From positions 1-64,000 of the forward strand of contig CAZMMZ010000003.1 in assembly GCA_964567575.1 (NCBI GenBank): a stretch of DNA of 64,000 bases, given 5' to 3'. Below the pieces are notes generated by a model. That model had not been told where the DNA came from and did no database searches. It saw nothing but the letters and a program-made list of their open reading frames with translations. The translations under genes were made by a program, and so were the position numbers. Below are positions 5,338 to 6,953 of the stretch, piece after piece; the first letter of the stretch is position 1, and each line of letters starts with the position of its first letter. This DNA is from Candidatus Undinarchaeota archaeon. GTDB taxonomy: Archaea; Undinarchaeota; Undinarchaeia; Undinarchaeales; UBA543.

Positions 5338-5871
5338 TTAGTTTTTTGGAGCTTTTACAGTTATTCGTCCTTTTCTGCTTTCAAATCCAACTGCATTGAA
5401 ATAATATACTGTTGGTCCTTCAAGAGCGATACTCCAGGATTCTCCTGGTCGTATTTTTGGAGAATATGTATGTCGTGAATATGTTACTAAATCTATTCCA
5501 TGCATGTTATAGTCTTCATCATTTATCCAAGTAACAATTGTTCCACTTTCTATTGTAACATCATTTGGTTTGAATCGATTGTCCCTTAATATGATTTCAA
5601 CCATTTCTATCTCTTCAAGTGTTTCTGGTTCTTCAACAACTTCTATTTCTTCTTCAATCTTCTCTTCAACAATTTCTATGTCAGCTTCTGGTTCAATTTG
5701 TATTATTGCTTCGCGTGGTGGGTTTGCAATATCAATGCTTGCTGTTGCTTCTCCTTCTCCTGCAACCACTAGAACTTTTGCAGGTGTCATGAATAGTGCT
5801 ACAACAAGAACTATTATTATAAGTATTAATCCAATAAGGAAGATATCCTCTTTATTTTTCATACTTTCCAC
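5338..5871 (-). CDS. Membrane-anchored cupredoxin-fold protein lacking copper ligands
   Basis: N-terminal TM, acidic linker, then FKPNDVTIESGTIVTWIN...H...PGESWS; YYFNAVGFESRKG replaces the usual Y-C-x-x-H-x-x-M. Confidence 0.7.
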   Translation of the reverse strand: MESMKNKEDIFLIGLILIIIVLVVALFMTPAKVLVVAGEGEATASIDIANPPREAIIQIEPEADIEIVEEKIEEEIEVVEEPETLEEIEMVEIILRDNRFKPNDVTIESGTIVTWINDEDYNMHGIDLVTYSRHTYSPKIRPGESWSIALEGPTVYYFNAVGFESRKGRITVKAPKN

Positions 5872-5926
5872 TAATCAATTTAAGTTTATAAGGATTTTGG
5901 ACTGGCTAATTTGAATATAAAAGTAG

Positions 5927-5988
5927 TGCCTCTGCCCGCCCATCTTTCATCATATTGTAATCAGCTCGATGTCGGTACATCATCGGCA
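5927..5988 (-). ncRNA. Box C/D guide sRNA, predicted targets 23S A2503 and 16S C1402 (E. coli numbering)
   Basis: Minus strand reads TGCC-G-ATGATGT(C)-ACCGACATCGAG-CTGA(D')-TTACAAT-ATGATGA(C')-AAGATGGGCGGG-CAGA(D)-GGCA. Terminal stem TGCC/GGCA; TATA-like ATTTATA at 6011-6017. Confidence 0.88.
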
Positions 5989-6035
5989 ATATGTTTTGGT
6001 TTAAAGGTTGTATAAATAGTTTTAATTTGCGAGTT

Positions 6036-6953
6036 TCAAAAATTATCTAAATAATGTTGATACTTATGGCGCATTATTTTCTCAGTTCCTGCTGTTTTGA
6101 CAAAACCATGTGATCTACTCTGTTTAAGTGTTTCATATGATATGCCATCACTTACAATAATATATTTTGAGAAAAGCCGAATATTATTGGGTGTCTTCCG
6201 TACTACATCCAGGAATTCCGATAAACAAATTTTTGCATATCCCCCAGTTACCATAAAATAATCTATCCTTGGGTCTATTTGATTCAAAGCATCAATCGCA
6301 TAATGAGCTGCTTCTTTTTTCTTTCTAAAATCTTTATAGATTTTTGTTATAGGAGGTCCGCCTCGTACTGGAGTTATATCTTTTGAATCTTCAGCATCCT
6401 GTTTTAATCGGTTTTTTAATTCTCTAGGCATTTTTTCAAATCTGAAACCATTGTGCATAATCCTCCAAGTATTATAGTTTTTCTTTTCTTCTTTCTGTGA
6501 TTTTTTATTATAATTAAGTTTGAAACCAGGAACATCTGAATTATATGGATCATGTGTTTGTCCAAATACATTATCATAATCAGTTGAGGATGAGGCAGTC
6601 CAATTGTAAGTATATATTTCATCATCATCTCCATATCGCTCCTGATAAGCATCCGCCATATCTGTTGGATTGGCATCATCTCTTTGGTCAGAATAATCTA
6701 GTCCTGCGTGATCTTGCTGTACATGTTCCAAAATATCATTCATGTCTTTAATTCTGTAAATAATTCGTATATCTGCAAGATTGTAAATATCTTCTAGAAA
6801 ATAGCTTGAATATGTTTCATAAATGATTGGGATTTTTCTTTTTTTCAGAATATTAGCAAATTTTAATATTTCATAATACTGGTCTTCATCACATCGCAAA
6901 TTTGTCCATGGTTGTATCATGAAAAGCGCTGCTCTATTTCTGTATTTTCCCAT
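6036..6953 (-). CDS. Hypothetical protein, possibly a divergent cysteine hydrolase (isochorismatase-like) fold
   Basis: AALFMIQP near the N-terminus and IDYFMVTGGYAKICL loosely resemble isochorismatase motifs; long acidic insertion between them. Confidence 0.4.
   Translation of the reverse strand: MGKYRNRAALFMIQPWTNLRCDEDQYYEILKFANILKKRKIPIIYETYSSYFLEDIYNLADIRIIYRIKDMNDILEHVQQDHAGLDYSDQRDDANPTDMADAYQERYGDDDEIYTYNWTASSSTDYDNVFGQTHDPYNSDVPGFKLNYNKKSQKEEKKNYNTWRIMHNGFRFEKMPRELKNRLKQDAEDSKDITPVRGGPPITKIYKDFRKKKEAAHYAIDALNQIDPRIDYFMVTGGYAKICLSEFLDVVRKTPNNIRLFSKYIIVSDGISYETLKQSRSHGFVKTAGTEKIMRHKYQHYLDNF

Follow-up and report, generated by a model that had tools for sequence, protein, structure and literature searches.

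A conserved box C/D sRNA of Undinarchaeota with predicted guides to 23S A2503 and 16S C1402

We identify a genuine, previously undescribed archaeal box C/D guide RNA that is conserved in Undinarchaeota (DPANN). Its gene occupies positions 5927–5988 of the window (the 64,000-nt stretch of contig CAZMMZ010000003.1 that was analysed) and lies on the minus strand, read from 5988 to 5927, with a length of 62 nt as deduced from the sequence. With a probability of roughly 0.8, we interpret the gene as an independently transcribed box C/D sRNA that would form a ribonucleoprotein (RNP) with L7Ae, Nop5 and fibrillarin and guide the 2′-O-methylation of two predicted nucleotides, A2503 of 23S rRNA and C1402 of 16S rRNA (E. 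coli numbering throughout). The evidence consists of the anatomy of the locus, its conservation and covariation, the complementarity of both guides to rRNA of a congener and the finding of genes for all three proteins; from these lines, transcription, RNP assembly and the two methylations are predicted.

Gene anatomy and genomic context

The RNA opens with the 5′ strand of a terminal stem, UGCC (5985–5988, minus strand, as are all features below), followed by a G; this strand pairs with the 3′ strand GGCA (5927–5930) to give a stem of 4 bp. Between the two strands lie box C (AUGAUGU, 5977–5983), the 12-nt D′ guide ACCGACAUCGAG with 23S A2503 as its predicted target (5965–5976), box D′ (CUGA, 5961–5964; invariant among the orthologues with both guides), a D′–C′ spacer of 7 nt (UUACAAU, 5954–5960; variable among orthologues), box C′ (AUGAUGA, 5947–5953), the 12-nt D guide AAGAUGGGCGGG with 16S C1402 as its predicted target (5935–5946) and box D (CAGA, 5931–5934; a variant of CUGA). 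Boxes C and D are thus one base each off the RUGAUGA and CUGA consensus, the departure in box C being its last base, U. A TATA-like box (TTTATA, 6011–6016) approximately 22–26 nt upstream of the RNA 5′ end probably represents an archaeal promoter, and a run of four T residues (5919–5922), 4 nt past the 3′ stem, is a likely terminator. The locus therefore has the hallmarks of archaeal box C/D sRNAs: C and D boxes at the ends, internal D′ and C′ boxes with a short spacer between them, two guides close to 12 nt long, a terminal stem and, for both guides, at least 9 bp of complementarity to rRNA (that of a same-genus species) with a Watson–Crick pair at the fifth base. An earlier sequence-only reading had proposed an unannotated C/D sRNA at 5927–5988 with four boxes, two 12-nt guides, a terminal stem and an upstream TATA; all of these elements are present, on the minus strand, and the C/D sRNA interpretation is supported, with a positive outcome for each computational check suggested in that reading.

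The source assembly is an archaeal Undinarchaeota MAG of 745 kb in 18 contigs (82% complete). Two minus-strand open reading frames flank the sRNA gene (5338–5871 and 6036–6953), neither of which matched a Pfam family, and the gene begins 47 nt past the stop codon of the upstream one. The downstream frame opens with a segment that, read by eye, is hydrophobic and signal-like. A search of the genome for the proteins of the C/D RNP, which had been suggested as a check, found genes for all three above the Pfam cut-offs: fibrillarin (264.9 bits), adjoining Nop5 (162.8 bits) on contig 6, and L7Ae (95.9 bits) on contig 9. RlmN had no match in the 82%-complete genome.

Predicted pairing with rRNA

The 16S rRNA gene of the organism is assembled only to approximately position 704 and its 23S rRNA gene is absent from the assembly; the rRNAs of a same-genus species (G002), whose 16S is 95–96% identical to the organism's own fragment over the shared part, stood in for the 23S and the 3′ end of the 16S. 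The E. coli rows of published alignments and the positions given in the RlmM paper (PMC3488215) served to verify the numbering. The alignment of the G002 16S (L051) with the organism's own 16S fragment (L001) breaks at approximately 452–508 of the G002 gene, with about 50 extra bases in G002, and the Rfam hit to that own fragment comes in two parts, divided at model positions 496/518; the 16S of the genus may contain an insertion or intron.

The D′ guide forms 10 Watson–Crick pairs (guide positions 2–11) and a G–U pair (position 12) with the G002 23S site, UUCGAUGUCGGC. The initial claim of a perfect 12-nt complement therefore fails, as the 23S of the lineage reads UUCGAUGUCGGC and not CUCGAUGUCGGU at this site. 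The guide base five positions upstream of box D′, a U, forms a pair with the A of UUCGA, so that the assignment of A2503 by the +5 rule holds on the same-genus 23S. In the 16S of G002, the target region reads ACCGCCCGUCAA, and the D guide forms 9 contiguous pairs (8 Watson–Crick and one G–U) with CCGCCCGUC, as previously stated. Its fifth base forms a G–C pair with the second C downstream of the G, which likewise agrees with the +5 assignment of C1402. Checked against the same-genus rRNA in place of the organism's own, both guides thus pair at the registers first proposed.

Both sites also stand out energetically. Among all 4,428 12-nt windows of the G002 16S and 23S, the most stable duplex of the D′ guide is with the A2503 site (−18.2 kcal/mol; mean −3.2, s.d. 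2.1) and that of the D guide is with the C1402 site (−19.9 kcal/mol; mean −4.6, s.d. 2.8), approximately 7 and 5.5 s.d. below the mean, respectively. The target sequences at the two sites were invariant across every Undinarchaeota rRNA that we fetched. In a whole-genome search, no site in a tRNA or mRNA was more complementary to the guides than the rRNA sites, and the only perfect matches to the guides in the genome were on the antisense strand of the sRNA gene itself. An alternative target for the D guide beside the D′ target, 23S positions 2511–2522, was rejected: it offers only 7 pairs, differs from one relative to another and places a G·U at the target position.

The C1402 guide across archaea

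We searched archaeal genomes for the C1402 guide with the pattern GA(U/C)GGGCGG, one base and CNGA, preceded by a C-type box. Matches were found in 40 of 301 genomes (23 of 205 genera), most of those inspected being clear C/D sRNAs, and a control with the reversed pattern gave none. Approximately 70% of the archaeal C1402 guides (L085–L104), and all 12 of the Undinarchaeota copies, have a U opposite 16S G1405 (a G–U wobble) instead of the fully complementary C. The C1402 guide also occurs repeatedly with, or beside, a guide complementary to 16S CUUAAAGGAAUU (archaeal loci L098–L103, L104 and Undinarchaeota genome G016 (L069)); the latter guide belongs to a tandem second sRNA in L098–L103 and is the D′ guide in L104 and G016. 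This hints that the C1402 and CUUAAAGGAAUU guides are an ancestral pairing, in which the second was replaced by the A2503 guide in the order Undinarchaeales.

The distribution and pairing of the C1402 guide bear on the alternative that fares best, namely that the locus is a real C/D sRNA in which only one guide directs methylation and the other serves as an anchor or folding chaperone or is inactive. The likelier inactive guide would be the 9-bp, G–U-containing D guide of the sRNA's own genus: 9 bp is the usual lower limit for guide–target prediction, and double guides in the published set usually target sites within 100 nt of one rRNA (PMC4644070), whereas these two lie on different rRNAs. 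Chance matches as long as the 9 bp of the D guide are, moreover, common genome-wide, at about one per 55 kb. Yet the D-guide core GAUGGGCGG is invariant in the 12 Undinarchaeota copies and recurs in the same register in the 40 archaeal genomes, the duplex extends to 10–11 bp in sister families and the target pair is a Watson–Crick G–C, and the D′ guide has 10 Watson–Crick pairs and is itself kept across the phylum. We therefore consider a single active guide unlikely, and favour the reading in which both guides would direct methylation.

Lineage restriction of the A2503 guide and guide shuffling

The A2503 guide shows a much narrower distribution. It is present in 13 of 17 Undinarchaeota genomes, as either the D′ or the D guide and with differing partners, and in none of the 284 non-Undinarchaeota archaeal genomes searched. 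Likewise, none of 489 published sRNAs from seven species has a guide to the A2503 column (2777; PMC4644070 supplement). The predicted target of sR204 from Ignicoccus hospitalis is column 2778, which corresponds to E. coli U2504, the neighbour of A2503 but a different nucleotide (PMC4644070 supplement). These two surveys bear out the expectation, voiced before any comparison, that guided methylation of A2503 would be unusual. When the A2503 guide was sought under stricter criteria in a set with each GTDB species represented by a single genome, matches came from ten archaeal MAGs and five bacterial contigs. Of the archaeal matches, nine were orthologues of the sRNA; the tenth, in an Undinarchaeota MAG, was another sRNA that shares the D′ guide. 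The five bacterial matches fall within the number estimated from the pattern length and database size.

Several Undinarchaeota genomes carry one of the two guides in other combinations. The A2503 guide is the D′ guide of an sRNA with an orphan partner in G013 and the D guide of another sRNA in G014 and G016, whereas the C1402 guide is found with other D′ guides in G016 and G010. The partner guides in G013, G014 and G016 had no convincing rRNA target, except for the D′ guide that accompanies the C1402 guide in G016, which matches 16S CUUAAAGGAAUU. Given that the A2503 and C1402 guides sit with differing partners, they behave as selected modules, and the family illustrates guide shuffling between sRNAs. 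Our literature search found neither a report of 2′-O-methyl-A2503 nor a paper on Undinarchaeota C/D guide RNAs; the A2503 guide thus predicts a ribose methylation that we have not found reported, at a concrete, testable site.

Uniqueness, conservation and covariation

Searching the whole 745-kb assembly with a regular expression for the four boxes and the terminal stem yielded the sRNA locus as the sole match. In shuffled-genome controls, the strict pattern gave no match in any of ten shuffles, and a relaxed pattern gave none in nine and one in the remaining shuffle. At gathering thresholds, Rfam had no match at the locus. A permissive scan gave 15 weak matches, 14 of them to box C/D families and those 14 all on the minus strand, with sR2 scoring best (21.9 bits versus a gathering threshold of 42) and the SNORD43 model reaching 14.6 bits (threshold, 45). 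Because no curated Rfam C/D family reaches its gathering threshold, the sRNA is, judged from its sequence, a new family within the known box C/D class. A whole-genome run of the generic snoPyro_CD model missed even the sRNA locus, and a relaxed C…D scan combined with an rRNA-match filter gave 215 matches, mostly in coding sequence, which is too noisy for a count of the sRNA repertoire. From this noisy scan comes a second C/D-like locus in the same genome (G000), outside the window on contig 9 (47325–47381, minus strand), with the order AUGAGGU, a 12-nt guide, CUGA, a spacer, GAUGAUGA, the guide GAAAGGUAGCUG and CCGA. In isolation, the RNA encoded at 5927–5988 is not unusually structured (z = −1.2), and its minimum-energy fold retains the terminal stem; we regard this low intrinsic structure as unsurprising for an RNA with protein-folded k-turns.

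Orthologues were sought by BLAST and with a covariance model (R1) built from six copies, which scores the sRNA locus at 81.2 bits. The sRNA was found in 12 of 17 Undinarchaeota species genomes, and both guides are kept together in 10 species genomes from four families. Boxes and guide cores are invariant among the orthologues, and the D′–C′ spacer varies in both sequence and length (3–12 nt). A TTTATA-like box lies approximately 22–30 nt upstream in most orthologues (degenerate in a few), and most have T-runs within about 10 nt downstream. A metagenome scan added one further variant (L120) and six GC-rich chance matches without boxes.

Paired positions changed in concert. The terminal stem is 100% paired in six orthologues, with one pair changed on both sides from C–G to G–C. 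In stem II of the k-turn, position 5 of box C covaries with position 2 of box D, from U–A in the sRNA's own genus to A–U in sister families; box D is accordingly CAGA in the former and CUGA in the latter, with compensation in box C. This change on both sides accounts for the odd combination of CAGA and AUGAUGU. Box C position 7 also changes together with the final base of the D guide (U·G, U–A and A–U). The compensatory changes come from few independent lineages. In all ten dual-guide orthologues, the usual U·U position of the k-turn (box C 5/box D 2) is a Watson–Crick U–A or A–U pair, whereas the single-guide relatives in G010, G016 and G013 retain U·U.

These patterns make it very improbable that the motif arose by chance or is what is left of an sRNA gene that has decayed and lost its function. 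Such an origin could be read from the non-consensus boxes C and D and from Rfam scores that all lie below threshold, but the deviations in the two boxes compensate each other (the U–A pair), the locus is unique in its genome against 0–1 matches in the shuffles, and orthologues in four families show compensatory changes and, for the most part, a TTTATA-like box. We also rejected, as having next to no likelihood, a plus-strand hairpin resembling an intrinsic terminator (5970–5988 and a T-rich tail) or another plus-strand element: a consensus scan does give one terminator-like site on the plus strand, but the organism is an archaeon, the flanking genes are on the minus strand, the hairpin requires two G–T pairs and conservation tracks the C/D boxes and guides instead of the hairpin.

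Proposed mechanism and significance

By analogy with the established model of the C/D RNP, the two binding sites of L7Ae would be the C/D k-turn at the ends of the sRNA and the C′/D′ k-loop within it, and a Nop5 dimer would bring in two fibrillarins. Each 12-nt guide would then pair with pre-rRNA over about 10 bp, and fibrillarin would 2′-O-methylate the rRNA nucleotide facing the guide's fifth base, counted upstream from box D′ or box D. The predicted target of the D′ guide, 23S A2503, belongs to the peptidyl-transferase centre and the entrance of the exit tunnel, and that of the D guide, 16S C1402, is situated at the top of helix 44 in the decoding centre. The 16S and 23S genes adjoin on one contig in the congener, and therefore, speculatively, one RNP could meet both targets on a single precursor.

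The locus shows that the C/D machinery has been retained in a reduced DPANN genome, together with no fewer than one canonical guide RNA, whose predicted targets lie in both functional centres of the ribosome. We regard as about evenly balanced a broader evolutionary proposal, in which Undinarchaeota ribosomes carry an RNA-guided 2′-O-methyl group on 23S A2503 as a phylum-specific innovation, and one order fused the corresponding guide to the ancient, pan-archaeal and eukaryote-like C1402 guide, so that one RNP would mark both catalytic centres of the ribosome in a reduced genome whose complement of guide RNAs is very small.

Comparison with known systems

A2503 is central to nascent-chain sensing, and at C1402 the bacterial enzymes RsmI and RsmH make m4Cm1402. 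A2503 is also central to antibiotics that bind the peptidyl-transferase centre (PMC3488215), and bacterial RlmN (m2A2503), Cfr (m8A2503) and RlmM (Cm2498) act on the same or adjacent universally conserved nucleotides (RlmM/Cfr context, PMC3488215). In contrast to the guide system proposed here, these bacterial enzymes are all stand-alone proteins, and those at A2503 methylate the base, not the ribose.

The closest likeness in architecture is to the archaeal box C/D sRNAs (sR2, RF01139; sR49, RF01303; snoPyro_CD, RF00095; and the sets of Dennis et al. 2015, PMC4644070). They too are approximately 60 nt long, with four boxes, guides of 12 nt and a short stem joining the ends, and they target functional centres of rRNA (as predicted here) and depend on L7Ae, Nop5 and fibrillarin, a dependence that would apply here as well. 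The Undinarchaeota sRNA differs from them in that AUGAUGU and CAGA give a Watson–Crick U–A where U·U is usual, in that its two guides address different rRNAs, and in its host, a DPANN archaeon with a reduced genome of mesophilic type that holds no other strict four-box match. Across the seven species covered by Dennis et al. 2015, the column of C1402 (16S C1389) is assigned to just two sRNAs, which are from Thermoproteales and are each flagged with a target mismatch (PMC4644070).

The D guide has its counterpart in eukaryotes. SNORD43 (RF00221) methylates human 18S C1703 (PMC7114786), and from the shared target sequence we infer that this C is equivalent to E. coli C1402. The Rfam consensus of SNORD43 aligns with the C1402 guide in an identical register and shares its layout: a guide core GA(C/U)GGGCGG, one base and a CAGA box, with the fifth base opposite the same C of the universal CCGCCCGUC. 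The core is the first (D′) guide in SNORD43 and the D guide in the Undinarchaeota sRNA, and SNORD43 has a C where the Undinarchaeota sRNA has a U, so that its duplex lacks the wobble. At this universally modified nucleotide, the C1402 guide connects the archaeal guides with those of the SNORD43 type in eukaryotes.
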